The notes beneath the pieces are model-generated. The model was not told the origin of the DNA. It saw only the letters and a list, made by a program, of their open reading frames with translations, and searched no databases. Shown here one piece after another: positions 36,239-60,596 of a stretch of DNA of 64,000 nucleotides; positions within the stretch are counted from its first letter, which is position 1, and each line of letters opens with the position of its first letter. The stretch is taken from contig CAVTUQ010000025.1 in assembly GCA_963737905.1 (NCBI GenBank), forward strand, positions 160,001 through 224,000, given 5' to 3'. The position numbers and the translations under genes were made by a program. The stretch is from an uncultured delta proteobacterium. GTDB lineage: Bacteria; Desulfobacterota; Binatia; UBA9968.

Positions 36239-36940
36239 TCAGGCTACCCGTTCGAGAGTCATTCGACGTCTCAGAACTAAGGCCATGACGTCGCAGCCCT
36301 TACAGTGTGTCTCGATAAACCGACGAAGCGAAGCGAGTTCCACAGGCAAGAAGTATAGCGTACACCTCTCTGTGAGGGCATCGAGAACACTGCTATCAAC
36401 GGTCCCGTAAGAAATCGAGTCGTCCGTGTATGAGATTTCGCTTATTTGAATGCGACGTGGATCGAGGGTTTTCACCACTTCCTTGATCAATCCGATGAAC
36501 AAGTTGATCTTGTCATCATCGGGGCAAGTTGCGGGCGCCCAAGAAAAGTGATTTTTCATTTCTTTCTTAATTTCGTTTTCTTGAATCTCGACCGTTAGGT
36601 CCGTCTCTGTCAGGCGACCGCGAACGAATTCATAGCTCATGGGTTCCTGAATGCTCTTTCGCGAACGGCGCAGAATATAGCGGTCGTGACCGTTGGTCAC
36701 CTCGATATAACCGACACTCATGGGATCCAGTGGCGAGCCACCAGGGAAGAGTTTCTCGCCGCTAGCCCTTAGAGGTTCTAAGCGATGGCCAGCGTGTTGT
36801 GTCATAAACAACCGCCAATCATCGGTTTCCTGTGCTTCGACTGCATCACCTACAAAAACAAAAGCCGGAGCTTTATCAAACGGAGAAACGTGATGGATAG
36901 CGTCACAGACACAGCAATGGATAAACTTTTCGCTACCCAT
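36239..36940 (-). CDS. hypothetical protein with possible CxxC...HxxH metal site
   Basis: 233 aa; CCVC..HH and QHAGH; overlaps the upstream kinase stop by 8 nt. Confidence 0.75.
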   Translation of the reverse strand: MGSEKFIHCCVCDAIHHVSPFDKAPAFVFVGDAVEAQETDDWRLFMTQHAGHRLEPLRASGEKLFPGGSPLDPMSVGYIEVTNGHDRYILRRSRKSIQEPMSYEFVRGRLTETDLTVEIQENEIKKEMKNHFSWAPATCPDDDKINLFIGLIKEVVKTLDPRRIQISEISYTDDSISYGTVDSSVLDALTERCTLYFLPVELASLRRFIETHCKGCDVMALVLRRRMTLERVA

Positions 36941-38054
36941 ACTTGCGCTGCTCCGTGAGCAGGGGAGCCGCGACGCTCGCCTGGGAAGGAAATTTCATCA
37001 GGACGCGAGTGCCTCTGCCCGCTTCACTGTTGATTTCTAGCATTCCACCGATGAGCTCAGCCATCCGGCGCGCGACCGTGAGCCCTAAACCCAACCCGGC
37101 GAAGGAGCGGTGAGACGATGTATCGACCTGGTGAAATGGCTCAAAGATCGAGTCCATCTTATTTTTTTCTATACCGATCCCTGTGTCTGTAACTTCGAAC
37201 TCAATACTCGAATGGTCAGCCGTGGGACGAGCCTTGACTCTAATTTCCCCCTGAGCTGTGAATTTGATTGCGTTGTTAAAAACGTTCTGAAAGATCCTTT
37301 CGACCTTAGAGCGATCACTGACAATTGAAATTCCGGTATCAGCCATTTCAATCGAGAGCGCGAGTCCCTTCTCGGCCAGGATCCGCTCGTATCGCTTGAC
37401 CGCTTCACGCACGACTTCACGGGCGTCGAATTTTTCGATGGTTGCTGTCGCATCGCCGGCGTTGAGAGAAGTCATCCAGAGCACATTATCGATGAGTTCC
37501 AATAATTCCTCGGAGTTACGGTAGACGGTTTCCAAAACCTTTTGTTGCTCCTCGCTCAGTTTGCCAATCACCTGGTTCAGGAGCAGGTAAACAAAACCCA
37601 CCACCACACTCAGGGGAGTTCTCAGCTCATGTGAAATATTAGAGAGAAAATCCGATTTGACCTGTCTTAACTTGCTCTTCGCATTCCGGCGCTCAAGCCC
37701 GCGGCGAACCAGAGATAGGATGTGATTTACATCAAAAGGTTTGGAAATATAGTCAAATGCGCCCAGGCGCAACCCCTCGATCGCCGTATCCAAGGACCCA
37801 TACCCGGTGATGATTATTGCTTCGATATCCGGATCGTACTCCTTCAGCTTTTCGAGCACATGGATTCCTGAGACCCCGGGCATTTTGAGGTCCAACGTCA
37901 CGAGATCGACCGGAAACTTGCCGAGCATTTCAACTGCCTGTCCACCGCGCTCCGCAACGTGTACGTTATAATAGGGGTTGAGAATCATCTTTAATGATTC
38001 CCTGGGACCCATTTCGTCGTCGACAACAAGAATGTGAGGCTTGCTTGTATCCAT
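36933..38054 (-). CDS. cytoplasmic hybrid REC-histidine kinase
   Basis: VVDDE, LDLKMP, KPF; SHELRTPL; NAIKF, DTGIG, GLGL. Confidence 0.93.
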   Translation of the reverse strand: MDTSKPHILVVDDEMGPRESLKMILNPYYNVHVAERGGQAVEMLGKFPVDLVTLDLKMPGVSGIHVLEKLKEYDPDIEAIIITGYGSLDTAIEGLRLGAFDYISKPFDVNHILSLVRRGLERRNAKSKLRQVKSDFLSNISHELRTPLSVVVGFVYLLLNQVIGKLSEEQQKVLETVYRNSEELLELIDNVLWMTSLNAGDATATIEKFDAREVVREAVKRYERILAEKGLALSIEMADTGISIVSDRSKVERIFQNVFNNAIKFTAQGEIRVKARPTADHSSIEFEVTDTGIGIEKNKMDSIFEPFHQVDTSSHRSFAGLGLGLTVARRMAELIGGMLEINSEAGRGTRVLMKFPSQASVAAPLLTEQRKYG

Positions 38055-38067
38055 GCCCGCGGCTTAC

Positions 38068-38084
38068 AGCAAGGAGCATGCCAA
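38068..38084 (-). promoter_or_regulatory. sigma54 -24/-12 promoter
   Basis: Minus strand TTGGCATGCTCCTTGCT (TGGCAT-N5-TTGC) just upstream of ATG 38054. Confidence 0.7.
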
Positions 38085-38174
38085 TGAATAGGAAAAGCCC
38101 AAATGACGAATTTACAAGCGTAATTTTAAGCCAAGGAAAGGAATAGAGAGAGTTAAGGGAACAATTTTGTCCAA

Positions 38175-39581
38175 TTAGGTCGATAATTTGACTTCCTCAC
38201 CCCCGTCATTAGGTTCGTGGATTTTTAGTTTCTCGATCCGGTACTTAAGAATACGACGGCTGGTTCCGAGAAGTGAAGCGGCTTTGGTCTGATTGAAGCC
38301 GGTTCGTTGGAGAGCCTTAACGATGAGTTCGCGTTCAAATTCGTCTACAGCTTCGCTTAACGGTTTCGAACCACTCAGTACATCCTCTTTGAGCGTCGCG
38401 GTCTGATCCGTGGAACGCATCCCCGCCGGCAGATCCCGCAACATGATCGTTTCGTGTGGCGTAAGGATCGTCAGCCTTTCGATCAGGTTCTCCAGTTCCC
38501 GAATATTTCCAGGCCAGTAGTACGATGTGAAAAAATCCACCACCTCCGGAGACAGGCTTTTGGGCGCCATAGAATGCTCTTGCGCCTTGAGTCTTAAGAA
38601 ATGATCCAAAAGCAGCGCTATGTCTTCGGGCCTTTCCCTCAGGGGAGGGAGGTAAAGCGAAACGACATTGAGCCGGTAGAAAAGATCAGGACGGAACTCC
38701 CCAGCCTTGGCCATCGTTTCCAAATCGCGATTACTGGCAGCGATAACTCGGACATCAACTTTGATTTCATCCGTGCCACCGAGACGGGTAAACGTTTCCT
38801 GCTCTATAGCGCGTAGGAACTTCGCCTGAGTCCCGAGATTGAGTTCACCGATTTCATCGAGAAAAAGCGTCCCCGCATGGGCGAGTTCGAAGCGACCTAC
38901 CTTCTTCTGCGAGGCGTTTGTAAAGGCGCCTTTCTCGTAGCCAAACAATTCACTCTCGATCAAAGTGTCGGGGAGAGCCGCGCAGTTCACCACAACGAAC
39001 GGCTTGGAGCGCCGATCACTATTGTAGTGAATCGCCCGTGCGATCAGCTCCTTCCCCGTTCCACTTTCGCCGGTAATCAGCACCGTGCTTTTTTTGGCCG
39101 CAACCATGCTGACCGCCTTAAACACATCGATGATCTGTTTGGATCGCCCGATGACGTGCTCAACCCCGTACTTGCGGCCGACTTCCTCCTTCAACCGCTC
39201 CAGTTCCCTGAATAAATGGACTTTCTCGAAAGCATGCTCGACTCGCAGGCGCAACTCCTCCACATCGAAGGGCTTGGTCACGTAATCGAAAGCCCCTGTG
39301 CCTTTGGCTGTAAAGGCCGTTCGCGCGGTGTTGAGAGCAGTCAACATGATGACCTGACAATCGGTATGGATCGACCTCATTTGTTTGAGGACGGCCAGAC
39401 CATCGGCACCCGGCATGACAATATCCAACAAAACTACGTCGGGTTTTTCATCCGCAAGCTTCTGAATCGCCTCGTCGGCCGATGTGGCTTCTAAGACACG
39501 ATAAAGCTTGTTAAAAACAAGCTGCAGCGATTGTCTCACTCCAGCCTCGTCATCGACGACTAGCAATAAGGGTTGGCTCAT
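38175..39581 (-). CDS. sigma54-dependent response regulator (NtrC/AtoC type)
   Basis: REC (VVDDE, LLD), GESGTGKE, ESELFG..GAFTNA, FLDEI, WPGNIREL, Fis HTH. Confidence 0.95.
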   Translation of the reverse strand: MSQPLLLVVDDEAGVRQSLQLVFNKLYRVLEATSADEAIQKLADEKPDVVLLDIVMPGADGLAVLKQMRSIHTDCQVIMLTALNTARTAFTAKGTGAFDYVTKPFDVEELRLRVEHAFEKVHLFRELERLKEEVGRKYGVEHVIGRSKQIIDVFKAVSMVAAKKSTVLITGESGTGKELIARAIHYNSDRRSKPFVVVNCAALPDTLIESELFGYEKGAFTNASQKKVGRFELAHAGTLFLDEIGELNLGTQAKFLRAIEQETFTRLGGTDEIKVDVRVIAASNRDLETMAKAGEFRPDLFYRLNVVSLYLPPLRERPEDIALLLDHFLRLKAQEHSMAPKSLSPEVVDFFTSYYWPGNIRELENLIERLTILTPHETIMLRDLPAGMRSTDQTATLKEDVLSGSKPLSEAVDEFERELIVKALQRTGFNQTKAASLLGTSRRILKYRIEKLKIHEPNDGGEEVKLST

Positions 39582-39600
39582 TTCTCGCTTCTTTTCTAAT

Positions 39601-41493
39601 TCAAGCAATTAGGAACTCCATTTTCAAAAGGTCTTTTTCGGTGTCCGAATAGTCGAGGGTCATATGGCCGCCGTTGCGCTCGACCAGTTGTTTTGCGAGC
39701 AGGATGCGTAAGGAGAGTACGGTTTCGCTCGGGCTCGACGACGATTTATCGAAATAATGCGTGATCGACGCGACACGCCCCACTTCACGAAAATATGAGA
39801 TTGCAACGCATCCTTGTTTCTCGACGTTGATCTCAATTTCGCTTCCCATTTTTGCCTGCGACAGTACCGCCAACAGCACGTTCTTCAGAATGTACTTGAC
39901 CTGAGTTTCGTCGGCTTTAATTTCACGGCTATAGCCATTCCCTTTCCAAGTGATTTGGGCCTGCCTCCGGGCACATTCGTTGCTGAGTTCATTTAACGCT
40001 GAGCGAAGTTTTTCCTGCAACGCCACCTTGCTCCAACGGGGCTGCGCGAAGTCGGCAAACTCGATCATCAGCTCAAGCAGGTCATCCATCCGTTCGATAT
40101 CGCCGCCCACGACATCTTGGAAACGGGCCCGGAAATTCTCGTCCTGGTACCTGTCCGTTAGCAGCTGTGCAAAGGTTTTGATGGTGACCATCGGGTTCTT
40201 TAATTCATGGGCTAGCTCATGGATCAAAACGCTTAGGTCCTCTCTTTGGGCATGACTATTCTCTGTGCTAGCCTCCGCGTAGACGCCGTTAAGGGGTTGC
40301 GTCAGACTTTCGGCCCTATCGAGATCGCTTTTTTCTTGAACTTCTGAATGGACCAAGGCTTCAAACGCGGGGATCTCTGGCAATTCTCCCGGCGCCGAAA
40401 AATCGAAAATCAGATCGGCTGCTTCGACCCAGCTCTTCCGTTGCAAGGCCAGCGTCCGGGCGATGACTGTCTCCATTTCGTTTAAGTTTCCAAACCAAAG
40501 GTAGTTGCTGAGACGCTCGTTAGCACCTGCGGAAAGACTCACTTCTCCCAAGCCGAGATAGCTGGCATAAAACTGGCAAAACCAACTGGCGATTGCCGGT
40601 ATATCCTCCCGTCGCTCCCTTAGCGGCCGAAGCGACAATTTCAAGGTGGCGAGCTTATAATAAAGAGACTCCAATAACTCATCCCGATAAACTTTCTCCA
40701 AGATATCGACCCGCGCCGTTGTGATAAGACGGCACTTGCCGAATTTGGCTTCCTCTTCTTCTAAGAAATTCAAGAGTTCCGCCTGGCAGGCTAACGAAAG
40801 CCAATCGACATTCTCAATGATCAATGTAACCGGCGGCGCTTCGCTGCTACGACACCATGACAGTTGAAGGCTCTTTTGATCCAAATAGGCATTGTTGATC
40901 TCGGCCGCATTCAATGAAACCCAGCTACCGAAACGAGCCCCTAAAAAATGAATCCCACGGGCCACGCGTTCCTGACCGCAACCAATCTCCCCCGAGATCA
41001 AAATTGGCAAGCCGGTGACTGCAAACCGATGAACCAGGCTGGCCGCGGCTCGAGCAAGATAAGGGAATTCAAGGTACCGGGTAAACTCTCCTCGAGGCTC
41101 GACTCCAGGATGGTAAAGAGCCTCGGATAGAATGTTTCTGCGGGCTAAGAGTTGCCCCACCTTCTCTTTTAATTCATAGGGGCTAAAGGGCTTGGCTAAA
41201 CAGCCAACCCTTTCTCGGTCATCGATCGCCCTTGCAGCTGATTTCGAATCCACCAGAAACAAAACCGCGAAGGGCGCTTTGTCCGCAAATCTCAAGAGAC
41301 TAGAGGGCTCCTTCCCGATAGCTGGTGTGACGCCGAGAATTAGTAGGTCCACATCGCGGTCAGTTTCAGCAAACGAAAAGGCGCCTTTTCCAAAAGGCCT
41401 CTTTGCGACGACAAACTCCCGCCCCAAGATAAGGGCCAGGGTCTCCCGCACGACCTCAGACTCCTCAATGACTAAGATTCGCTTCGTTTGCAT
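39601..41493 (-). CDS. degenerate REC + sigma54-AAA + HisKA + HATPase-like chimeric protein
   Basis: LVIEE..LLILG..KPF; GEIGCGQE; LYYKL; WFGNLNE; AHELKNP; no recognisable G-boxes. Confidence 0.85.
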   Translation of the reverse strand: MQTKRILVIEESEVVRETLALILGREFVVAKRPFGKGAFSFAETDRDVDLLILGVTPAIGKEPSSLLRFADKAPFAVLFLVDSKSAARAIDDRERVGCLAKPFSPYELKEKVGQLLARRNILSEALYHPGVEPRGEFTRYLEFPYLARAAASLVHRFAVTGLPILISGEIGCGQERVARGIHFLGARFGSWVSLNAAEINNAYLDQKSLQLSWCRSSEAPPVTLIIENVDWLSLACQAELLNFLEEEEAKFGKCRLITTARVDILEKVYRDELLESLYYKLATLKLSLRPLRERREDIPAIASWFCQFYASYLGLGEVSLSAGANERLSNYLWFGNLNEMETVIARTLALQRKSWVEAADLIFDFSAPGELPEIPAFEALVHSEVQEKSDLDRAESLTQPLNGVYAEASTENSHAQREDLSVLIHELAHELKNPMVTIKTFAQLLTDRYQDENFRARFQDVVGGDIERMDDLLELMIEFADFAQPRWSKVALQEKLRSALNELSNECARRQAQITWKGNGYSREIKADETQVKYILKNVLLAVLSQAKMGSEIEINVEKQGCVAISYFREVGRVASITHYFDKSSSSPSETVLSLRILLAKQLVERNGGHMTLDYSDTEKDLLKMEFLIA

Positions 41494-43633
41494 GAGCGCG
41501 CCCGTTGCTTAATTGACGAATCGGCTTACCCGTTGGCAAATTTATAAAAAATGTTGTTCCAACACCGACTTTACTCTCAACCGTGACAAATCCCCCATGT
41601 TCCTGGACAATTTGATGGGAAATCGAAAGCCCCAGGCCGCTACCCTCGTCTTTGCTGGTAAAAAATGGATCGAAGATATGGTCCAAGTTCTCGGCTGGAA
41701 TCCCTATCCCTGTATCGCGGACCTCAACTTGAACAAATTGGCCCGAGTGTCCTGCTTCGTCTCTGGAAATGAGTCGTGTGGATACGAAGATTGACCCACC
41801 CTCTCTCATTGCCTGGATGGCATTAAGTATAAGGTTCATAAATACCTGCTTCATCTGCTCCCTGTCAATCCAGACTCTAGGCAACCCCGGGCCAAAATCC
41901 CTTGTAATCTCAACACCTTTCTCCTTGGCCTCGCTCTCCAAGATACGCGCAATCCCGTCCACAACATCATTCATATTTTCTTCCGCGACATTGGGGCGCG
42001 ACGGCCGTGCAAAACTCAAGAGATCGTTGATCAAGCCGCAAATGCGATCCACCTCCTTCAGTGCAATGCCCTGAAATCCCTCACGAAATTCAGCGTCATT
42101 GTAACGCTCCGGCAAAAGCTGGGTGAAAGTCCGGATGGCGACTAAGGGATTGCGAATTTCGTGGGCGAGTCCGGCGGTAAGTAGTCCCAAAGAAGAAAGC
42201 CGGTCCGCCCGGCGGAGCGTATCCTGGGACTGCTTAAGGTTTTCATAGAGTCGAGCATTTTCTAAAGCAATAGCGGCCTGATTGGCTAAAGTGGACAAGA
42301 GTTCCAAATCTTCGCTAGAATAGATTTCCTTCTCCCGCTTGTGACCCAAATTGAGGATCCCGATAAGTTTCTCTTTGGAAATGATTGGCACGCTAATTTC
42401 TGCACCGAGTTCTCCCATTTTTTCCGCAACCTCGAGTCCAGAGACCCTATCCTGAGCCATTTCTAGTTCTTCCTTAACGACTCCCTCCTGGCTACCCGTC
42501 AGCCGCTGAATCAGTGGATCACTCTTCGAAAGCAAGGCTTGAAGGTATCCGTTTCTCTCCTGACCGATGTTTGCTTTGAGATTATAAACTCCCTTGGTCT
42601 CATCCAACAAATAAAAAGATGCGGTTTCAGTCCCCAGAGCCCGGCTAACCGTCTTCACCAGACTATTGGATAAATTTTCTAAATCGACGATAGATACCAT
42701 TTCCTTGCTGGAACGAAGAAGCGTTTCCCGGTAATTGACGCGTTTCTGGAAGAGAACTCTTTCCAATGCGTCTTCAGTCTTGAATCGAACCTTCGGAAAA
42801 AGAAATCCCACCATAATAAAAAGCATGAGGGTAACCATGGAGAACGTGTAATTGATACTGTCGAAAGCAAGCTTTTGCCCCCAAACAACCACGAGGAAAC
42901 AAGGAACTAAAAGTGCCGCCAATAGAAGTGCATAAATAAGACTCTTCCTGATTACGACCTCAATATCGAGGAGTCTGTACCGAGCGATGGCATATGTGAT
43001 CGGAGCTGTATAAAGATACGCTAACGGCGCTCCGAACGGCTGAATTCCAGCCTGAATTATTGGTAAGAACGACGTCCCTGCGCCCAGAAAGCCTATGAGA
43101 CTAGCGTAGATAGCATACCTCAGTTGATTCTTTCGAACTGGCAGATCGCTCCGTTTATACCCATCAATCAACCGATACAGTCCGTAAGAAGGGATTGAGA
43201 CATAAAGAACGAAATGCAAAATATAGGCTTTGGTAGGAATTTCGTAGAAGCCAAGCGAGGGATCGGCGCGTACTCCTCGTGTAAGAGCCCCATTAATTAA
43301 CAAAAGAAAATCTACGATCGCTGCGACGTACCCTGCCAGCAGCACCGCCCGGCTTTCATCCTCCTCTCCCAAAAGAGAAACGCAAAAATGAAGATAAACA
43401 GGAGGGACGAATATTGCGGAAAAATAGATCAGATACACAGTTTGCTCTGCAACATACCTCGTTTCAGCAATGGCAATCAGAAAACGGCCTGCGTGCCAAA
43501 CACTAATTGACAAGCACAGTAGAAACCAAGTTCGACGAACGATAGGTTTTGATTGCCCACGGTACAGGACAAATAGCCCTGCAAATAGGCTAAGAAAAGT
43601 TCCCAGAAGAAAGTTTACTTCGTACCAGGTCAT
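41465..43633 (-). CDS. multi-TM + GAF sensor histidine kinase
   Basis: Many N-terminal TM helices; GAF ([29 protein letters not shown]); AHEIRNP; NAIQA, DTGIG, GSGLGL. Confidence 0.93.
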
Positions 43634-43635
43634 GT

Positions 43636-44895
43636 TTATGCGTCAAACTTCCGGATGACGCACGCGGCGTTGTGTCCCCCAAAGCCGCTTGAATTGGAAA
43701 GTATCGTTGAGATGCGCAAAGGTCTCCCGACATTCGGAACGTAATCCAGGTCGCATTCCGGATCCTTTGACGCTAAATTGATAGTAGGATGGACGTATTG
43801 ATTCTCCAGGGTTAAAGCGCACGCTACAAATTCCAAAGCGCCACAAGCACCCATGGTATGACCGACGATTGATTTGGTTGAATTTACTACTAAGCCGTAG
43901 GCGTGGCCACCGAAGGCTCTTTTGATTGCAAGTGTCTCGATCTTGTCATTAAGAACTGTGCCACTACCATGAGCGTTCACATAGTCAATCTCCTTTGGCA
44001 TTACACCAGCATCTGCTAAAGCCTTTAGCATTGCTTTGGCTCCAAATTCAGCCGACGGTAGCGGCTGCAGCTCGTGGTAACTATCAAAGGTAGCAGCATA
44101 GCCTAAGATCTCGCCGTATATTTTTGCTAGGCGTCGCTGCGCGTGCTCAAGTTCCTCTAAGATTACCAAGGCTGCCCCTTCTGCCAGTACGGTGCCGTTT
44201 CGATCCTTGCTGAACGGACGGCACGCCTTGGTCGGTTGATCATTCTCAGTCGATAGGATCCCCGCGGAAGAAAAGGTAGCTATAGCCAAAGGTGTGATCG
44301 GAGCCTCAGAAGCTCCGGCAATAGCAATATCAAAACTGCCATCCCTGATGGAGCGAAAAGCTTCTCCAATAGCGCTAGTTCCAGACGCACATGCGCTTGT
44401 AATTGTTGAGACTGACCCATGTATCCCCAACGCCTTGCCAATTTGGGCTGGGCACGAGCTTGGGAGAGCACTGTGATTAAAAAAAGGAGGGATTCGTCTC
44501 AAGCCTTTCGTAACGAAAAGCGAGTGAATTTCCTCTGCCTGAGAAAACGCACCCAAGGAAGTCCCAAGGACAACACAGGTTCTTTCTCGATCGCAAGAAT
44601 CAAACTGTCTCGTTAGATCTGCATCCTCCCAGGCAAGTTTTCCAGCAGCCAAGCCTAGAAGAGAAAACCTACTCAGGCGACGGGTTAGCTCATAGGGATG
44701 AAAGGCGTGAGGGTCGAAATCCTCCATCTGTCCTGCAATCCTTACGGGATATGTCTCAGCATCGAAACTCGTGATAGGGCGGATTCCTGAGCGGCCGTGT
44801 TTCAATGCGTCCCAAAACTGCGCCTTCCCGATTCCCACTGAGGACAGAATACCCAAGCCAGTGATCACAACCCTACGACGATTAGGTAACGTCAC
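43636..44895 (-). CDS. FabF-like beta-ketoacyl-ACP synthase
   Basis: SACASG, NAHGSGT, KSIVGH, NSSGFGG; Cys-His-His triad intact. Confidence 0.92.
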   Translation of the reverse strand: MTLPNRRRVVITGLGILSSVGIGKAQFWDALKHGRSGIRPITSFDAETYPVRIAGQMEDFDPHAFHPYELTRRLSRFSLLGLAAGKLAWEDADLTRQFDSCDRERTCVVLGTSLGAFSQAEEIHSLFVTKGLRRIPPFFNHSALPSSCPAQIGKALGIHGSVSTITSACASGTSAIGEAFRSIRDGSFDIAIAGASEAPITPLAIATFSSAGILSTENDQPTKACRPFSKDRNGTVLAEGAALVILEELEHAQRRLAKIYGEILGYAATFDSYHELQPLPSAEFGAKAMLKALADAGVMPKEIDYVNAHGSGTVLNDKIETLAIKRAFGGHAYGLVVNSTKSIVGHTMGACGALEFVACALTLENQYVHPTINLASKDPECDLDYVPNVGRPLRISTILSNSSGFGGHNAACVIRKFDA

Positions 44896-45034
44896 ACGTT
44901 GCTCCTAATAGTTCTTAAACCAGGGAATGGCTAACGTAATAAAGAATCGGCTGTTAAATTTTCGCGCGAGTCGTTTTACTCTAATAGTCTGAGAATTAGG
45001 ACTAGGGATTTTCATAACCGTACCGTTGCTGCCG

Positions 45035-45214
45035 TCAGGATTCAATGTTCGAGTTCTTTCTCAACCAATCGTCGATCAAATTCTGCTTGAAACGCCATTG
45101 ACTCCCTACTTTAAAGGCGGGTATTTTTTTTTGGGTGACTAATCGATAAACGGTGAACTTGTCTACCCTTAAATATTGGGCAACTTGGTCGATTGTCAGG
45201 AGTTTCTCTTGCAT
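45035..45214 (-). CDS. excisionase/MerR-like small HTH DNA-binding protein
   Basis: LLTIDQVAQYLRV...TVYRL...IPAFKVGSQWRF. Confidence 0.85.
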   Translation of the reverse strand: MQEKLLTIDQVAQYLRVDKFTVYRLVTQKKIPAFKVGSQWRFKQNLIDDWLRKNSNIES

Positions 45215-45315
45215 AATCATGCCCTTTATGACAGTTTCTGTCATAATCTTTGCACTGTTTGCTTTCTTTTGATAGCCATATATAACAGATAGCAAATTGA
45301 GTCAAACTACCCACA

Positions 45316-45582
45316 GTGACCCCGGATAAATCAAAATCTGTCGAGGAAAACCTTAAGGAATTGATCGCTCAGGAGTTCGGGGTGGACCGGTCCAGAATAT
45401 CTCGTCACTCCAAAGTTAAGGAATTAGGGCGAGACTCCTTAGCGTTGTTAGAGCTCCTAGCTACAGTCGAAATTCAATTTGAGATTTCAATTCCAGACGA
45501 AGAAGCAACAAAAATATCATCCTTTGAATCACTGGTTCATTCAATAGAAAAGCATCTAGAGATGAAGTCAGACTCGACATGA
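45316..45582 (+). CDS. acyl carrier protein
   Basis: LGRDSL phosphopantetheine motif; FEISIPDEEA. Confidence 0.88.
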   Translation: MTPDKSKSVEENLKELIAQEFGVDRSRISRHSKVKELGRDSLALLELLATVEIQFEISIPDEEATKISSFESLVHSIEKHLEMKSDST

Positions 45583-46856
45583 AGGAAAGACGAGTAGTTG
45601 TCACTGGAACCGGATTAATTACTCCCTTTGGTATTGGCCGGAGAAAATTTTGGGACGCAATTAGATCAGGATGTTCAGGAATTTCTAAGATTCGTCAATT
45701 TGACTCGTCTCAGTTGAAGTGCCAAATCGCTGGGGCCTGCCACGACTTTGATCCGGCTTTTTTTTTTCTGGATCCGGACGATTTTCGCAGGATGGATCGA
45801 GTTTCCCAATTTGCTGTAGCGGCTGGATCCTTAGCCGTCAGAGAAAGTGGACTATGTAAGAACAGCTGCGACACTGGTGTTATAATCGGAACAGGGCTTG
45901 GCGGAATAACAACCGATGATGTGCAACATGCATTACTGCACGCAAAGGGAGCAAGGTTCGTTCAACCCACAGCCATTCCGATGATTATGTACAATGCTGC
46001 GGCGAGCCATATTTCTAGCCGTTTCGGCTTCAAAGGGCCAGGGTACACCATTACAACTGCGTGCGCGTCAGGCACACAAGCCATCGGAGAGGCTTACAGA
46101 CTAATTAAACACGGCTATACTCATACTATGATTGCTGGGGGCGCAGACGCACCATTAAGTTTTGGAATTTTCAGCGCGTGGTGTGCTTTGAGAATTCTCT
46201 CAACGAGAAACAGCGATCCCACAACTGCTTGCAGGCCATTTAGCCAGGATAGAGATGGCATGGTCTTAGCCGAAGGCGCAGGCATTGTGGTTCTAGAGGA
46301 ATTACAACATGCTATGAATCGATTCTCACCTATACATGCAGAGGTTATTGGCTATGGTTCGAGTAACGATGCATATCATATCACGCATCCGGACGTGGAC
46401 GGAGAGGCCGAAGCGATAAAAAATGCCATGAAAGATGCCGGACTCGCTCCGAACGATATAGATTATATAAACGCACACGGTACGGGTACAAAAATAAATG
46501 ATTTGGCCGAGACAGCAGCAATCAAAAAGGTGTTCGAGAAGCGAGCATACTCTGTTCCTATAAGCTCTACAAAGTCGATGATCGGACATGCTATGGGTGG
46601 TGCCGGCGCAATAGAATTCATAGTTTGCTGCCTATCGCTCCAACATGATCTTATCCCGCCCACTATAAACTACTACGTTCGTGACCCCGAATGTGACCTC
46701 GACTACGTACCAAATGTTGCTAGGGCGGAGTCACTTGATATAGCCATGTCCAACTCCTTTGGCTTCGGAGGCACGAACGCGGTTCTTATTCTCAAAAAGC
46801 TTTCACAGAATTTGGACGTTGCGGTCGCTCATAGGCCAAATCCGACACCGTCATAA
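45579..46856 (+). CDS. FabF-like beta-ketoacyl-ACP synthase
   Basis: TACASG, NAHGTGT, KSMIGH, NSFGFGG; triad intact. Confidence 0.93.
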   Translation: MKERRVVVTGTGLITPFGIGRRKFWDAIRSGCSGISKIRQFDSSQLKCQIAGACHDFDPAFFFLDPDDFRRMDRVSQFAVAAGSLAVRESGLCKNSCDTGVIIGTGLGGITTDDVQHALLHAKGARFVQPTAIPMIMYNAAASHISSRFGFKGPGYTITTACASGTQAIGEAYRLIKHGYTHTMIAGGADAPLSFGIFSAWCALRILSTRNSDPTTACRPFSQDRDGMVLAEGAGIVVLEELQHAMNRFSPIHAEVIGYGSSNDAYHITHPDVDGEAEAIKNAMKDAGLAPNDIDYINAHGTGTKINDLAETAAIKKVFEKRAYSVPISSTKSMIGHAMGGAGAIEFIVCCLSLQHDLIPPTINYYVRDPECDLDYVPNVARAESLDIAMSNSFGFGGTNAVLILKKLSQNLDVAVAHRPNPTPS

Positions 46857-47108
46857 GTCTACTGGAGCTCTTGTCGAACTGAGCTTCAAGACGGAGGATG
46901 CGGCTGCCCGTTTTAACTGGCTTTAATTCTGGTTCGTCCTGCTACTTCCAGGTTCTCGTTCTTGTCCGACCAGTAAGTCGTTAATTTCTTCAAGTTTTGG
47001 GTTTTCGAACGTGTGGTAGTTTAGCAAAATTTTCTTGCACCGATGCGGTTGTTATGACATCATTTAGCAACAATTAGCAGCCTTATAGCAAAATTGGAGA
47101 AAGTCTGG

Positions 47109-48398
47109 ATGAACCTATACAATTGGTTTCGAATTTTCGCTTTAGTACTTGCTACAATCACCCCCAGAGTGGCCTTTCCGGGTGGATTCATGCTGCCTTA
47201 CCAGACCGCAAGAGGCCTTGCCTTGTCAAACGCGCTCACCGCTGGCATTGATGATCCGTCAGCCGTATTTTATAACCCTGCCGGTTTGGGGGAGGTAACT
47301 GGAAATCAACTTTTGATCAACGGGACTTATATAAATGCCCAAAACAGCGTCGAAAACAGCGGGAGAAAAGTTACAAACAAACATGACAACAACTTCCTCG
47401 CAACTTTTTTTGCGAACTATCACATCCCAGGCACTGATTTCACCCTCGGGATAGGCACCTATACCCCGTTCGGACTCGCGACAGAATATGGAAATGATAC
47501 TTTCACTCGTTTTGCTGCAATCGATACGGAGCTAAAAACCATTTATGTCACGCCTGCTTTGTCTTGGAAACCATCAAATTATTTTTCTTTCGGTGCCGGG
47601 CTGAGTTTTGTTCATTCTTCGGAAGTTGTTTCTAGAGCATTGTGCTTCGATCCCATTTCCGGTTGTACGCAGCCTTTAGGTCTCGAAGGAAAAGTTCGAA
47701 TTACTGACACAGCAGATGCGTTCGCTTATAACCTTGGCTTCCTTGTTAAACCTACGGAGAATCTCAAGTTCGGATTTAGCTACAGATCACGGGTCGACCT
47801 GCGATTCGATAACGCCGATGCAAAGTTCGGAGGCTCGTTCTCGATCCCAACGGTGAAGAGCAATGTCAGACCATTGCCGCTTCCTCCAGTTATTAACGCC
47901 GGACTCTTTTGGCAAATTACTCCTTCATGGGGCGCCGAGTTTGTCTATGAGTACACGCGATGGAGCGAAGTTAAGAGTCTCAGCGCAAGTTTTTCCCCAA
48001 TACCTTTATTTCTACCACTCGGCGTACCAGTATCTGGTTTCAGTTCACCTCAGGAATGGAAAAATACTAGCACCTTACGATTTGGCAGTTTTTACCGGTT
48101 CGACGATAGATGGGAAATACGAGGAGGAATAGGTTTAGAAGAAACACCAATTCCAAACCGAACGCTCAGCCCTGCCATTCCAGGCGCCGACCTTTTTACC
48201 CTTAATACTGGAGTGGGCTACAAATGGCATAGTATGACTGTCGATCTCGGCTATACTGCGGTGTTTTACCAAACACGTCGAATAACTAACTCCGAGCTAG
48301 AAGGACTTACAGGCATACCATTTCTAGGCGCGCCAGGAAAAGATAAATACCAAAACTTCGGAAACCTGGTGTCTCTCACGTTGGGATACCGTTTCTAG
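47109..48398 (+). CDS. FadL/OmpP1/TodX outer-membrane channel
   Basis: Signal peptide; DDPSAVFYNPAG; TPFGLATEY; C-terminal YRF. Confidence 0.9.
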   Translation: MNLYNWFRIFALVLATITPRVAFPGGFMLPYQTARGLALSNALTAGIDDPSAVFYNPAGLGEVTGNQLLINGTYINAQNSVENSGRKVTNKHDNNFLATFFANYHIPGTDFTLGIGTYTPFGLATEYGNDTFTRFAAIDTELKTIYVTPALSWKPSNYFSFGAGLSFVHSSEVVSRALCFDPISGCTQPLGLEGKVRITDTADAFAYNLGFLVKPTENLKFGFSYRSRVDLRFDNADAKFGGSFSIPTVKSNVRPLPLPPVINAGLFWQITPSWGAEFVYEYTRWSEVKSLSASFSPIPLFLPLGVPVSGFSSPQEWKNTSTLRFGSFYRFDDRWEIRGGIGLEETPIPNRTLSPAIPGADLFTLNTGVGYKWHSMTVDLGYTAVFYQTRRITNSELEGLTGIPFLGAPGKDKYQNFGNLVSLTLGYRF

Positions 48399-52191: not shown

Positions 52192-52541
52192 CATTGGGTG
52201 CTACGAAGCCCCGCCAAGAAGCATTCGGTAGAGCTTGCGGCTTTTTGTCTCGACTTTTTCGTTCGCTGGGTACAGTGTCGATAAAGATCCGCTTAGCGGC
52301 GTGACCTTCATTCGTGATCTACTCAACGTAGTACCGCTTGATCCTCCTAGCCGAGTGCCGCACCGTTCACCAACGCTTGCTGTTACACGCAAGCTGACGT
52401 AAATGTGCTGAGTGTTTTTAAAGAGGCTTAGCGGCAAAGGTGCGACCGCAACAGGTTTTGAAACTGCAAAGAATTTATTCTCAATTGTGAGATAAAGCGT
52501 GATAAATAAAGACGAGCACCGCGATCGTGCCCATCCCTTCC

Positions 52542-53996
52542 ATGAAAACTAACTCGAAATCACCCGCGCTACAGACAGCAGAAAGGGACAGTATCATCGT
52601 CTGTCAAACCAGCCAGGGCTACAGCGTCCGGGCAACCCCGCTTCGCATCACACGCGATGTGGTCGCTTTTGAGGTCTATAATCCATATAGCATCCTCCAG
52701 CTCTCCGAGGTTCTACAAGAATTCAGAATCATCGTTAATGAAAAGTTGATTTATTCGGGACGTGCAACGGTCAGCAATCTTCTGAACATAGGCATCATGC
52801 TGGTCTGCGAGGCCACACTAGACGAGGGCTGGCTCGAGGTGGATCTTTTCGCCCTGGTCACTCAGCCGAAAAGATTACGGGCTGATTTCATCGATTTTCT
52901 CAAGGAGTGGGAGAGGATCAACATCATTTTGCCTGAGTACAAGGTAGTCTTGGCCGATATACAGAACTATTTTATCGATCTCAACCGTTGGCTGGAGCAG
53001 GTAGAGTTAGGAATCCGCTCCTCATCCTCCCTCGATCGGCGAAAAATGGAGCTCGAGGTCATCCAAACGTTGGCGCCGACTATCCTACCTTCCATCGATA
53101 CCCTCTTTACAAGGTTCGAAGAGATCGCCGACAAAGTACCCGACGAACTCCTGCCGTTCCATAGGACCTACGCCAAACGGCAGCTCCATCCGCAGGTCCT
53201 CTGCTCGCCCTTCGCATACCGCACGTACCATAAGCCGCTTGGGTACGCCGGTGATTACGAAACAGTGAACATGATTCTGCGAGAGCCCCTGGAAGGGAGC
53301 TCGATGTTTGCCAAGACAATAAACACGTGGTTACTGAAACAACCTTCAGCGGAGGCGCATCGAAATCGGATCAAGTATCTCACCGCGCAACTCGTCAAAG
53401 AAACACATCGCATCGCTCAGCAAGGCTCGATCGCCCAAATTTTTAGTATCGGATGCGGACCGGCCGGAGAGGTAAAGAATTTCCTGATTCAAGAAGAGCT
53501 GTCTAACAAGGCCCGCTTCACGTTGTTAGACTTCAACGATGAAACGCTCCAGCATACGGCCAAGGTGCTCGACGAAGCCAAACAACAGCACCATCGCAGC
53601 ACCGAGATCGAGATGGTCAAGAAATCGGTCCATCAGATCCTCAAGGAAGCAGGCAAACAACCGGTAGATCAGAAGTATGATCTTATTTATTGCGCTGGCC
53701 TTTTCGATTATCTCTCGGATCGTGTTTGCAAGAGACTCATGAATATCCTGTACGATATGCTCGCCCCCTATGGTCTTCTCTTGGCAACCAATGTTCATGC
53801 GTCCAATCCCAACCGTAATAGCATGGATTTTTTTCTGGAGTGGCACCTTGTTCATCGAAACCACGCGCAATTGGAGCACCTCAAACCTGATCTCGCGCCC
53901 GAGGGAAGCTTTAGCGAAAACCAGGAAGTGACGGGCGTTAACATCTTTATCGAGGTAAGAAAGCCCAGTGAAACAAGCCATCTGGAACGATCCTGA
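52542..53996 (+). CDS. PhcB-like class I SAM methyltransferase (putative 3-hydroxy fatty acid methyl ester synthase)
   Basis: KPLGYAGDY, AHRNR, SIGCGPA, LLDFN, YCAGLFDYL; long N-terminal region; synteny with kinase and atypical RR. Confidence 0.75.
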   Translation: MKTNSKSPALQTAERDSIIVCQTSQGYSVRATPLRITRDVVAFEVYNPYSILQLSEVLQEFRIIVNEKLIYSGRATVSNLLNIGIMLVCEATLDEGWLEVDLFALVTQPKRLRADFIDFLKEWERINIILPEYKVVLADIQNYFIDLNRWLEQVELGIRSSSSLDRRKMELEVIQTLAPTILPSIDTLFTRFEEIADKVPDELLPFHRTYAKRQLHPQVLCSPFAYRTYHKPLGYAGDYETVNMILREPLEGSSMFAKTINTWLLKQPSAEAHRNRIKYLTAQLVKETHRIAQQGSIAQIFSIGCGPAGEVKNFLIQEELSNKARFTLLDFNDETLQHTAKVLDEAKQQHHRSTEIEMVKKSVHQILKEAGKQPVDQKYDLIYCAGLFDYLSDRVCKRLMNILYDMLAPYGLLLATNVHASNPNRNSMDFFLEWHLVHRNHAQLEHLKPDLAPEGSFSENQEVTGVNIFIEVRKPSETSHLERS

Positions 53997-56652
53997 ATTT
54001 CAGCAGGCGTTCCTCGACCACGAAAGGCAAGTGCGGATCAACACAGGCAAACTTGCTTGTGCACTGGTCGTCGTCTTAATGCCCTTCGGGGTCTTGCTCG
54101 ATTATGCAGTCTACCCCGATAAAGTTGGGTATTTCTTCAAGTTGAGGCTTCTCTGTTCTGTTTTAGTTGGCATTATCTGGCTGGTTCACCGAACGCGCTG
54201 GGCGAGAAACCATTACCGGCTACTCGGACTTCCGATCGTGATGCTGCCAGCCTTTTTTATTGCCTTCATGATTTTCGTTACCCACGGCGCTAGTTCTCCT
54301 TATTACGCTGGGCTAAATTTAATACTCCTCGCCGTTAGTGCTGTGGGACACTGGAGTTTTCGTGACACAATGATCTCTGTCACCAGTGTTATACTCATGT
54401 ATTTCGGCGCGTCCTATCTAAACGCAGCAAACTTTGACATTAGGAATTTCATCAACAATCTTTATTTTCTTGTCTTGACTGGCATTATCGTTGTTGCCGG
54501 AAATTATCTCTATACTCGACTGCTCTTTCGAGAATTCGAGGTTCGTTTTCAGTTGGACAGAAGTCGGCTGATGCTGGAGGAAAGCAACCGAAAACTCCTC
54601 GAGCTGGATCAAGTTAAAAGCCGTTTTTTCGCCAACATCAGCCACGAGTTGCGCACGCCTCTCACCCTTCTATTGGCTCCCTTGCAAACCCTCCTCCAAG
54701 AGCGTGGCTTAACCTTGGACCCTGAAAAGCGCCAGCTGCTTCTCATTATGCAAAGCAACGGCATGCGACTTCTCAAACTCATCAATGACTTGTTAGACTT
54801 GGTTCGGCTGGAATCCGGCAAGATGGAGGTGAAGCGAGATCCCATCGCCCTGGAGCCATTCTTACACGGTCTGGCCAATGCCGTGAAAAAAAGCGCCGAA
54901 GACCGAGGTCTGCGCCTCGAAGTGACCTCCGATCCGGCCATCAGCACCGTGCTTACCGACAGCGACAAGTTAGAACGAATTTTACTCAACCTATTGTTCA
55001 ACGCCCTTAAGTTTACTCCTGCCGGTGGAAAGGTTGAACTTGAGGCAAGGCACGAGAACGGCGAACTGGTGCTGCAAGTTTCCGACACGGGCACGGGCAT
55101 CAGCGAGGAACAGCTCCCGTTTATCTTCGACCGCTTTTGGCAGGCGGACACCTCATCCCAAAGAAAGTACCGCGGTGTGGGAATTGGATTGGCACTGGTG
55201 AAGGAGTTGGTAGAGATCCAGGGCGGGAAAGTCGCAGTCACCAGCGCGATCGGCAAGGGCACACAGTTTACAGTTCGCTTGCCTTACGAGGAGTTGGGTT
55301 GCCAGTTTTCACAGATGGCGGAAGAGGCTGAACGTCTCACTGCGCTTCCATCACCCCTAGTTTCAGCCGGGACAGATGGGAGACCCGACCCCTGGCCGAG
55401 AAATCTCGACAGGCAGGCGGTATTTTATCCCTCCATGACCTCGCTCAGAGAAACGATTCGGCCCGTGGAGACCTCCATTCACAGCGGGCAACCTCGCCTT
55501 CTCATTGCCGATGACGAGCCGGACATGCTCAAGTATCTGAAATCCCAGTTGAGCGTTGACTTTCAGGTGATCGAGGCGGTGGATGGTCAGCAGGCTGCCG
55601 AAAAAGCTAGCCAATTTTTGCCCGACGTGATTGTGTGCGACATGATGATGCCCGAAAAGAACGGACTTGAGGTTTGCCGTGAACTCAGAGAACGGACATC
55701 GACCCGTTCCATCCCTATCCTCTTGCTTACCGCCCGGGCGGATGAAGAAACCAAGCTCGCCGCGCTATCCGCAGGCGCAAACGACTTCATTACCAAACCG
55801 TTTTCCATGACCGAGTTGAGCGTCCGGCTGAAAAATCTTTTTGATACTCACAACCTGCAGCAGGAACTTGCCCGCCAGAACCAAATTCTCGAGGCCACAA
55901 TCGAGCAGCTGAAAGAGACCGAAGTCCAATTGGTGCACTCAGAAAAACTGGCATCACTAGGACGCATGAGCGCCGGCATTATTCATGAAATCAACAATCC
56001 GCTCAATTTCGCGAAAACCGCACTGTATGTGCTGCGCATTATGACTGAGTCATTGGGCGGAAATGAGAAAAAAGAATTTCGAGAGGTTCTCGAAGATATG
56101 GGCGAGGGTATCAATCGCATCAGCGGCATCGTATCGGATCTCCGCACTTTCACGCAACCCCATTTAACCCAACCCGAGACAGTTTCCGCTATGGAAGTGG
56201 TCAATTCGGCCTTGCGCCTCCTGAGTAACGAGTGGGAGAACAAAGTGAGAGTTGAAAAGGAAATCCCGGAAAACCAGACCATCTGGGCCAATCGCAACCA
56301 GATCACCCAAGTTCTGGTGAACCTGCTGCAAAATGCCCTGCATGCGCTGGCAAAGAAGCATTGCTCTGAAACTGGAGCCACCATCTGGATTCGCGGCCTC
56401 GAGGAAAACGGCGAGAGCCTCATTATCCTCCGGGATAATGGCGAAGGGATTACTTCTGAAAATCTTCCGAAAATTTTCGATCCGTTTTTTACTACCAAAG
56501 ATGTGGGTGAGGGCATGGGACTTGGGCTTAGTATCTGTTACCGTATCATGAAGCAGCACGGCGGGCGCATCCAGGTGCAGAGCGAACCCGGTACCTATTC
56601 CGTATTCACATTACACTTTCCACAGAAACCAATAAACTCAATGCCCGCTTGA
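53968..56652 (+). CDS. PhcS-like membrane sensor with TM-HK-REC-HK architecture
   Basis: About 6 TM; SHELRTPL + HATPase; REC (ADDE, CDMMMP, KPF); HEINNPL + second HATPase. Confidence 0.88.
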   Translation: MKQAIWNDPEFQQAFLDHERQVRINTGKLACALVVVLMPFGVLLDYAVYPDKVGYFFKLRLLCSVLVGIIWLVHRTRWARNHYRLLGLPIVMLPAFFIAFMIFVTHGASSPYYAGLNLILLAVSAVGHWSFRDTMISVTSVILMYFGASYLNAANFDIRNFINNLYFLVLTGIIVVAGNYLYTRLLFREFEVRFQLDRSRLMLEESNRKLLELDQVKSRFFANISHELRTPLTLLLAPLQTLLQERGLTLDPEKRQLLLIMQSNGMRLLKLINDLLDLVRLESGKMEVKRDPIALEPFLHGLANAVKKSAEDRGLRLEVTSDPAISTVLTDSDKLERILLNLLFNALKFTPAGGKVELEARHENGELVLQVSDTGTGISEEQLPFIFDRFWQADTSSQRKYRGVGIGLALVKELVEIQGGKVAVTSAIGKGTQFTVRLPYEELGCQFSQMAEEAERLTALPSPLVSAGTDGRPDPWPRNLDRQAVFYPSMTSLRETIRPVETSIHSGQPRLLIADDEPDMLKYLKSQLSVDFQVIEAVDGQQAAEKASQFLPDVIVCDMMMPEKNGLEVCRELRERTSTRSIPILLLTARADEETKLAALSAGANDFITKPFSMTELSVRLKNLFDTHNLQQELARQNQILEATIEQLKETEVQLVHSEKLASLGRMSAGIIHEINNPLNFAKTALYVLRIMTESLGGNEKKEFREVLEDMGEGINRISGIVSDLRTFTQPHLTQPETVSAMEVVNSALRLLSNEWENKVRVEKEIPENQTIWANRNQITQVLVNLLQNALHALAKKHCSETGATIWIRGLEENGESLIILRDNGEGITSENLPKIFDPFFTTKDVGEGMGLGLSICYRIMKQHGGRIQVQSEPGTYSVFTLHFPQKPINSMPA

Positions 56653-56661
56653 GGAGAAATT

Positions 56662-57924: not shown

Positions 57925-58362
57925 TTAACGCAACAAATCCAAGCAATAAAACAGCCTGTTTCGCCCAGTTGGTTTTCTTAGTGGAGGGGTTGGCATGCCG
58001 TGAGACTAAAACCATAAGATTACTATCCACGCGATAGCGCACCCACCCAACAGTCCAAATATTTTCGCTTTTTATGTCTCGCCTGACTCATGGCTCTTGT
58101 CTGCCATCAAGGCTCGCGGGCCCATCTGACGGAACCGGCGGCCTCGGCACTGCAGCGCGACGATCGGGCTTGCGTAATGCCCGGCGCATAGAGGGAGCTT
58201 GATCTCTCGCGATAAGTCCTCCGCGAGCTGAGTTCTGACGAGGAAACCGGATGCGTGAGGCAACTGCTTTGGGATTTCACATCCCAGATCCCGTTTTATA
58301 CAGGGGTAAAGAATTCGCTTAGAAAGCCTTCTAATAAAATAAAAAATTTGGTATCTAAGCCC

Positions 58363-59247: not shown

Positions 59248-59416
59248 GACGGGGAAGCGTAATCTGATCGATTCGTGAAATCGGAGGGCAGAAAAAAGGA
59301 CAAGGAGCTAGACATGGGCTCCGAATCGACGTAAAGGGGAATAGATCGGATCAACAACACTAAGGAGTTAAACCGCGAGGTTGCCAGCCTTAGCCCTATG
59401 AAAGGGAGGATGAAAC

Positions 59417-60574: not shown

Positions 60575-60596
60575 GTTCACTGGACGGCCTGACTTC

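Follow-up and report, generated by a model that had tools for sequence, protein, structure and literature searches.

Does a ketosynthase (KS) whose gene ends just ahead of that of a membrane sensor kinase make the signal which this kinase reads? The locus that raises this question lies in a 64,000-nucleotide stretch (the window; positions 160,001 to 224,000 of contig CAVTUQ010000025.1) from a member of Ca. Binatia, whose relatives are uncultured bacteria of soil and water. An original prediction, made from the letters alone, read two FabF-like KS, an acyl carrier protein (ACP), a FadL channel, a small helix-turn-helix (HTH) gene and a phosphorelay as a synthase-receptor-uptake cassette for an acyl-condensation signal with sigma54 output. 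Open reading frame calls and family searches bear out all genes then listed as real, together with their order, their strands and the gap of 2 nt between the stop of KS1 and the ATG of the kinase (Table 1). Our comparisons with relatives suggest that this is probably a cell-cell signalling locus of the synthase-kinase quorum-sensing kind, with an acyl-derived signal and specificity groups like those of agr.

Within the family, the evidence comes from 67 loci gathered around orthologs of the chimera, a degenerate protein encoded after the kinase and present in 72 of 89 family genomes; with the window, 68 loci were examined. The variable region could be resolved in 45 relatives and the window, the remaining loci ending at a contig edge or breaking there. 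Sequence comparison indicates that the locus consists of two parts. The core, which is vertically inherited, comprises the kinase core, the chimera, the NtrC-type activator, the sigma54-dependent REC-kinase with unk233, the HTH gene and FadL. The slot, comprising the enzyme gene just before the kinase and the seven-transmembrane (7TM) sensor of the kinase, is exchanged as one block. Among the 46 loci, the slot holds a FabF-like KS in 19 (an ICMT methyltransferase accompanying three of these), a fusion of a LuxD-like acyl transferase and a SAM methyltransferase in 10, a 492-amino-acid protein of no family (U492) in 3, and VTC, MFS and PhnD-like genes with a shorter kinase bearing another sensor in 14. 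Whatever the slot type, REC-kinase, activator, chimera, kinase core, HTH gene and FadL keep their place. The block of this genome consists of KS1 and a sensor of subgroup A1, plus ACP and KS2 on the opposite strand, a pair found in none of the 45 slot-resolved relatives. The closest relative, of the same genus and with a chimera 91% identical, has the PhnD type, and its DNA identity to the window stops at 42238, within the kinase gene.

The sensor (residues 1-225) is 53-62% identical inside the window's group and about 30% identical to other groups, as against 60-92% for the kinase core. On the sensor tree (31 labelled rows, 5 states) slot type takes 4 changes, the minimum, where 1,000 shuffles gave a mean of 17.2 and never fewer than 13; the chimera tree, which has 45 rows, requires 21, against a mean of 26.8 in shuffles. 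Mantel comparisons at 18 KS loci gave a rho of 0.71 for KS versus sensor (p 0.0005) and of -0.15 for KS versus chimera; at 8 loci with the LuxD-methyltransferase fusion, the values for the enzyme were 0.44 (p 0.018) and 0.20, respectively. Identities of kinase core and chimera correlate at rho 0.86. Loci L102, L103 and L105 have chimeras that are 94-96% alike, with enzymes at 41-44% and sensors at 43-46%. As judged from these alignments and trees, sensor clades follow the slot enzyme, whereas the core genes do not, as would be expected if strains spoke dialects of one chemical language. The predicted synthase-receptor unit is supported by KS1 co-varying with the sensor and not with the core.

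Related 7TM kinases were found by a sensor-anchored search in 45 of 401 phylum genomes and 69 of 251 class genomes sampled. Fifty top-ranked loci outside the family were examined and five with <450 nt upstream were set aside, leaving 45. At 35 of these the kinase abuts a biosynthetic enzyme: FeeM/GNAT in 14 (10 called by Pfam, 4 by our own profile), KS in 10, ICMT in 5, class I methyltransferase in 2, B12 radical SAM in 2, SDR in 1 and START/cyclase in 1. The spacing between enzyme and kinase is about 0-30 nt at most loci. With the same exemplars, 1 of the 41 kinases of this genome, the window's own, has such a neighbour. Eight of the sensor-anchored genomes overlap with our sample of loci from other families, which includes G148. 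The prediction of a synthase before the kinase fits well with what stands in the same place elsewhere, namely FeeM-type acyltransferases, LuxD-methyltransferase fusions and methyltransferases. Three FeeM loci have divergent ACP plus ACAD, ACP plus KS or ACP plus ACAD plus KS genes, which mirrors the arrangement of KS1 versus ACP-KS2 in the window, and the KS of FeeM loci fall inside the slot clade. A KS-anchored metagenome sample gave, among the matches listed, 3 of 80 loci in the slot clade; at two of them a 7TM kinase follows immediately, in one case along with chimera, activator and REC-kinase, and the contig of the third ends. A 7TM protein occurs at 1 of the remaining 77. The metagenome listing obtained with the KS-A1 alignment was dominated by general FabF and served as a control only. 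As a separate observation, at two loci (L248:3730-9884 and L276:873-7248) a membrane GAF-GGDEF-HD protein, 7TM by Pfam in L248, has a GH3 acyl-adenylate enzyme and a FabF for neighbours, and in L248 a PEMT-type methyltransferase as well; these may represent another candidate synthase-receptor pair.

The range of slot enzymes also bears on an explanation without a diffusible signal, in which these enzymes produce or alter a lipid of the membrane, and this lipid, or the state of the membrane, is what the 7TM domain detects in cis, as in a DesK/Des-like loop. Such a loop would be in keeping with slot enzymes that all act on acyl chains, a membrane-embedded sensor, a KS2 that is a canonical elongating KS, the MMPL genes that flank FeeM loci and our finding no feedback promoter at this locus. 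Homeostasis is, however, unlikely to keep several deeply split enzyme-sensor types in near-identical genomes (L102, L103 and L105) or to exchange enzymes of four unrelated classes, and the housekeeping genes sit elsewhere (fabF beside fabH at G000:C26:14591; acpP with plsX-fabD-fabG on C22 of the same genome). We consider this explanation unlikely.

Both KS retain the Cys-His-His triad, as originally noted (C169/H309/H346 in KS1, C162/H300/H337 in KS2), and the best PDB matches of both are FabF. KS1 falls in a 15-member slot-KS clade (98/94), the core FabF form a separate 16-member clade (99/100) and KS2 lies outside both; the phylogeny indicates that KS1 is not a housekeeping FabF, in line with the prediction. 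The kinase-linked KS clade, including 9 KS from other families, has SH support of 96-98 in quick trees. Group A3 of the slot KS falls inside this clade in quick trees and outside it, with weak support, in the careful tree, so that the slot KS as a whole may or may not be monophyletic. Across the 86 proteins of the KS1 clade, C169, H309, K341 and H346 are conserved in 85-86, position 113 is Gly in none, and position 403 is Ser, Thr or Asn in 81, where FabF has Phe. The acyl pocket and gate of KS1 therefore appear to be altered, although the chemistry is not predictable from this. Ser113 of KS1 presumably matches the yeast substitution G1250S (excerpt of PMC12014800). Two further arguments were discarded. 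One, for chain length, drew on the residue before FabF I108 and is weak, KS1 having Leu at the I108 position; FabB G107 corresponds to FabF I108 (excerpt of PMC13160055). The other was the loss of an ACP-contacting Arg in slot KS, an Arg that B. subtilis FabF also lacks.

KS2 has no family match above 51% in the 89 genomes, but in metagenomes its relatives at 70-79% make up 7 clusters. Seven times, a relative of KS1 (76-90%) and one of KS2 (71-79%) come from the same source with the same size of longest contig, an indirect basis from which the pairing was deduced. The 8 KS1/KS2 pairs compared co-diverge (rho 0.86, p 0.001), three being identical, which leaves about 6 distinct pairs. G148, from another family, has two divergent KS genes, ACP and FadL with ICMT and SDR ahead of the same relay. 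The predicted layout of two KS and an ACP thus recurs, and sequence comparison indicates that ACP plus KS2 is a recurring but optional subtype rather than a fixed part of the cassette. At a further locus (L214:10235-13090), a kinase with two tandem 7TM domains stands behind FadL-KS-SDR-ICMT. Pfam and NCBIfam scans of the 21 genes of 27-57 kb detected no FabD, FabH, chain-length factor, cyclase or thioesterase family and no FabZ or FabI, these last two being checked by the scans alone; tblastn with the genome's own FabD, FabG and FabH gave as sole match a 28% SDR, 23 kb off. The original statement that FabD/G/Z/I, chain-length factor, cyclase and thioesterase are absent holds to that extent. 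A family scan detected no methyltransferase among the genes of 36239-48398. The KS-chain-length factor pattern of type II polyketide synthases is absent, as both KS retain Cys and both His.

In a structural model (pLDDT 88), residues 1-225 of the kinase form a seven-helix bundle with an outer beta-hairpin, like that of a G protein-coupled receptor (GPCR). The best structural matches are GPCRs (ADGRL3, Z 16.3, rmsd 4.0, 203 aligned; Foldseek E 5e-4), with the caution that helical bundles reach a Z of ~13 by arrangement alone and that the fold says nothing of function. In the chimera, the Asp of the pseudo-receiver is Gly in 66 of 77 sequences, the Walker A Lys of the AAA+ domain is Gln in 62 of 77 and the GAFTGA loop is missing; the DHp, which resembles that of the kinase itself, keeps His429 in 75 of 77, and the CA boxes are lost. 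The activator has GAFTNA in place of GAFTGA in 58 of 63 orthologs, with intact Walker A and B. A strict sigma54 match is found ahead of the REC-kinase in 47 of 60 relatives; within 36-48.7 kb of the window the motif occurs nowhere else. An intact AAA+ activator and a conserved -24/-12 promoter thus point to the sigma54 output that was predicted. Direct feedback onto KS1, ACP and FadL found no such support; feedback might run indirectly, by way of the HTH repeats. The putative output, unk233, belongs to no Pfam or NCBIfam family (atlas leads reached only <0.9) and lies behind the REC-kinase in many relatives inside and outside the family; a short paralog (46%; G000:C26:225384-225770) lies near another sigma54 activator.

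The HTH gene, whose start we corrected to 45214, was found in 31 of the 45 relatives with a resolved slot, and where it is missing the contig has mostly ended; BldC, which its product resembles, binds direct repeats as multimers (excerpt of PMC5859096). The promoter before FadL is the best genome-wide match of a model built from 24 relatives (non-coding part, E 0.002); for its diverged copy before ACP, the non-coding part alone is weak (E 0.15 within the window). Between KS2 and FadL, no HTH pseudogene was detected past the first ~20 bases. The GC content at third codon positions (GC3) is 0.43-0.48 from the 7TM part to FadL (HTH, 0.53) and 0.51-0.61 in the core; together with the duplicated promoter, this suggests that the block arrived by exchange. 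A contig from sequencing run X3 (95% identity) crosses the KS1-sensor junction, indicating that the assembly is not chimeric, and fragments of ACP, KS2 and FadL occur in X3 too. Runs X2 and X7 cover the core and hardly the slot, a gap that proves nothing and that no contig bridges. Recent block exchange of this kind would also be expected if the stretch from the HTH gene to the kinase core were merely a hot spot of recombination that carries unrelated metabolic genes along with pieces of sensor, with no functional pairing between them. We regard this as very improbable given the close spacing of enzyme and kinase, the same enzyme enrichment where the kinase lies far from the chimera, and a KS clade and kinase that stay joined over many families.

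FadL, with its start probably at 47109, is found in 35 of 45 slot-resolved relatives, and 9 of the 10 misses are at a contig or region edge. Co-variation of FadL with the slot was rejected, slot type taking 14 changes on the FadL tree versus 15 on the chimera tree for the same 32 rows. FadL thus belongs to the core and does not follow the slot, so that the original assignment of FadL to uptake of this signal stays an unproven reading. Action of FadL on long-chain acyl-homoserine lactones is known in rhizobia (excerpt of PMC9938287).

Several observations weigh against a signalling role. Enzyme and sensor are adjacent, so linkage by itself would yield co-variation, and the relatives are kin, not independent draws. 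U492 lies in the A1 sensor clade together with KS-A1; hence, sensor clade and chemistry are not one-to-one. The 14 family loci with VTC, MFS and PhnD hold what looks like a non-lipid module, with FadL retained. Ten of the 45 sensor-anchored loci have no abutting enzyme, and the control value of 1 in 41 is an undercount, the exemplars having missed the methyltransferase before the phcS-like kinase of the window's PhcB-like operon. Of 20 chimera-NtrC loci from other families of the class, 16 lack a kinase upstream of the chimera, the other 4 combine a 7TM kinase with lipB/meaB alone, and none has an adjacent KS; the genomes of the lipB/meaB type gave no match to KS1 at 1e-60. Among kinase-less genomes, the 7TM kinase was located elsewhere in 3 of 5 tested and not found in 2. 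Kinase operons without KS or ACP genes, which the original prediction had named as evidence against itself, do therefore occur (27 of 46 family loci and 20 of 20 from other families), although the replacements are mostly synthase-like. The cassette is without a release enzyme, and no sigma54 motif stands before KS1, ACP or FadL, so that no direct feedback loop is visible. Finally, the support consists of sequence and phylogeny.

The four lipB/meaB-type genomes (G563, G594, G454 and G532; 90-96% complete) are possible listeners without a synthase. Sensor-only loci in genomes lacking a FabF-like match (to KS1 at 1e-60) would also fit the import by FadL of a lipid from the environment or from neighbours, which the slot enzyme converts or inactivates and the kinase reads, that is, eavesdropping or quenching. 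FadL is almost always there, independent of the slot, and LuxD-like hydrolases and aldolase/decarboxylase folds would be able to degrade such a lipid. However, ACP plus KS2, FeeM acyltransferases, radical SAM enzymes and methyltransferases are biosynthetic, and a dedicated ACP suggests that the chain is built in-house; an outside cue is, in our judgement, improbable.

Under the reading that we favour, of a self-made acyl-derived signal, ACP and KS2 would assemble a dedicated acyl chain with the help of FabD/G/Z/I acting in trans, and KS1 would perform the last, chain-defining condensation or transfer. In relatives, the acyl product may be methylated, reduced or amide-linked by ICMT or other methyltransferases, SDR or FeeM. 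That the product here is a short- or medium-chain 3-oxo-acyl-type compound is a guess, and rather a doubtful one. The product would reach the inner membrane and bind the GPCR-like 7TM pocket, and the sensor kinase would then phosphorylate the NtrC-type activator, for which the intact DHp of the chimera may serve as a RedE-like phosphatase or sink acting on the receiver. The activator would fire the sigma54 promoter at 38068. Through the phased repeats, its probable binding site, the HTH protein would control how the operon, ACP-KS2 and FadL are expressed.

The staphylococcal agr system offers a close parallel for the pattern of exchange. In agr, agrBCD co-evolve and are unlinked from agrA (excerpt of PMC8768832). 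There, as here, the synthase co-varies with the sensory portion of the kinase, the regulator follows the genome and several discrete types exist. However, agr has a peptide signal and one synthase family; in the present system the enzymes are acyl-type and come from no fewer than four unrelated families, the kinase is a GPCR-like 7TM-GAF protein and the output runs through sigma54. Two features of a quorum-sensing pair are found: a synthase-type gene linked to a membrane sensor kinase, in the window and at 35 of 45 sensor-anchored loci, and an enzyme and sensing domain that co-vary apart from the regulator. In the PhcB-PhcS-PhcR-PhcQ system of Ralstonia, an enzyme for a fatty-acid-derived signal is likewise encoded just before a membrane kinase, with a receiver/kinase-like hybrid downstream (excerpt of PMC8578825), and methylation recurs in the slot here (LuxD-methyltransferase, ICMT). 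The cassette differs in having no PhcB homolog, the PhcB-like operon standing apart, and an NtrC/sigma54 output rather than PhcA. FeeM-type N-acyl amino acid synthases (PF21926) occupy the slot position before homologous 7TM-GAF kinases elsewhere, with divergent ACP/ACAD/KS; here a KS takes that place, and no FeeM homolog was found in this genome. FeeM-type enzymes use acyl-ACP (excerpt of PMC8762209), and a messenger role has been proposed only (excerpt of PMC4897644).

Stand-alone ketosynthases are also the proposed signal synthases of the PpyS and DarABC systems, to which the original prediction likened this locus. DarABC comprises the aromatase DarA and a FabH-type DarB, and the PpyS and Dar receptors are LuxR-type. 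PpyS is FabH-derived, with a Cys-His-Asn triad and a catalytic Glu105 (excerpt of PMC4578411). The likeness does not hold, as KS1 and KS2 are FabF-type with Cys-His-His, and the receptor here would be a membrane kinase; Pfam and NCBIfam scans found no Dar-type families among the cassette genes (DarA was not used as a query). RedE of the RedCDEF system of Myxococcus xanthus cannot autophosphorylate but has retained its His and works on a receiver (excerpt of PMC2755868), much as we infer for the chimera, which additionally contains an inactive AAA+ domain of the sigma54 type and a pseudo-receiver. By sequence criteria the locus is no member of the PpyS, Dar, type II polyketide synthase or Phc families, and no description of such a locus was found in the open-access literature.

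A bolder reading, to which we would give a little under an even chance, is that the HisKA_7TM-GAF kinases of this family are GPCR-fold receptors for self-made acyl lipids, that the locus is a plug-in socket for "languages" in which close relatives swap whole synthase-sensor pairs of unrelated chemistry on one conserved sigma54 relay, and that FabF-type KS are a new class of autoinducer synthase. The pairs would include FabF-type KS with or without ACP plus KS2, ICMT or SDR, the LuxD-methyltransferase fusion, FeeM, the aldolase-fold protein and even VTC/MFS/PhnD with a phosphate-type signal. For a bacterial receptor domain that is GPCR-like and an orphan, the findings name candidate enzymes that would make its ligand; if true, FabF-type KS would be a new route to bacterial signal lipids. 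Enzyme-sensor pairs that occur in nature, both matched and mismatched, are available for tests in E. coli. The relay is a core feature (72 of 89 genomes) of a family that is abundant in soil and uncultured.

Table 1. Features of the locus (positions in the window)
Feature	Positions	Strand	Remarks
unk233	36239..36940	-	no-family protein with N-terminal CxxC; second gene of the sigma54 operon; putative output
Soluble REC-HisKA-HATPase kinase	36933..38054	-	first gene after the sigma54 promoter; family orthologs 56-95% identical
sigma54 -24/-12 motif TGGCATGCTCCTTGCT	38068..38083	-	strict motif match
NtrC-type sigma54 activator, REC-AAA-HTH_8	38175..39608	-	REC Asp62 (long-ORF numbering), Walker A/B intact, GAFTNA loop
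Chimera: pseudo-REC, dead AAA+, intact DHp, degenerate CA	39601..41493	-	family searches, alignments
HisKA_7TM-GAF-HisKA-HATPase sensor kinase, whole gene	41465..43633	-	family searches
GAF, HisKA and HATPase part (kinase core)	41465..42733	-	inherited with core genes
Membrane sensor of the kinase, residues 1-225	42734..43633	-	HisKA_7TM; hypervariable; travels with slot enzyme
KS1, FabF fold, kinase-linked clade, subgroup A1	43636..44895	-	trees, alignment; proposed signal-defining enzyme
HTH_17 regulator, 59 aa, BldC/Xis-like	45035..45214	-	heads the KS1-kinase operon
Diverged copy of HTH/FadL divergent promoter	45215..45310	.	before ACP; phased ~11-bp TGGCA-like repeats, TATATA, AGTCAA
Dedicated ACP	45316..45582	+	Ser41 in GRDSL; 32% identical to housekeeping AcpP
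KS2, canonical elongating FabF-type, own small clade	45579..46856	+	tree; proposed acyl-chain supplier with ACP
Relic HTH start and well-kept repeat promoter	47018..47087	.	before FadL; model from 24 relatives
FadL-family outer-membrane channel	47109..48398	+	Toluene_X/FadL; core neighbour under all slot types

Two of the other slot types are of interest in their own right. At L031:6862-11401 and 13 other family loci, a VTC (CYTH-like) enzyme, an MFS exporter, a PhnD-like binding protein and a short kinase form a set that looks like a synthase, exporter, periplasmic binder and kinase for a phosphate-type signal. U492 (L048:9004-10482) belongs to an uncharacterised family with 329 matches, one of them named Bacteroidetes, and combines Rossmann-like and class II aldolase folds with invariant His/Cys residues; in its model (pLDDT 92.7), a domain matches the class II aldolase fold (Z 13.7, rmsd 3.1, 174 aligned). 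An atlas search with U492 gave no usable match, and a PDB sequence search gave nothing significant. An SDR follows FadL in L048 and L088.

Elsewhere in the window, 4 kb from FadL, the genes at 52527-57924 (+) encode a PhcB-like methyltransferase, a membrane double kinase and a REC-kinase-like protein and may form a second candidate signalling operon, for a fatty-acid methyl ester. Over 93%, the methyltransferase is 35% identical to one from a Paraburkholderia plasmid, which is encoded at the head of a kinase-REC-REC operon. A PhcB-like operon is also close to FadL in L032, L046 and L047. A receiver 73% identical to the PhcR-like receiver is fused to HTH_17 at G000:C5:105279-105941 (L124:7280-7942) and adjoins FadL in L046 too. 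The genes at 58255-63256 (+) are ordinary hopanoid genes (polyprenyl synthase, squalene synthase, squalene-hopene cyclase and phosphorylase). Two further non-housekeeping KS loci occur in this genome, one with KS, methyltransferase and FAD oxidoreductase (G000:C4:118110-121245) and the other at C22:66000-77000, which from its gene content we take to be an aryl-polyene-like cluster.

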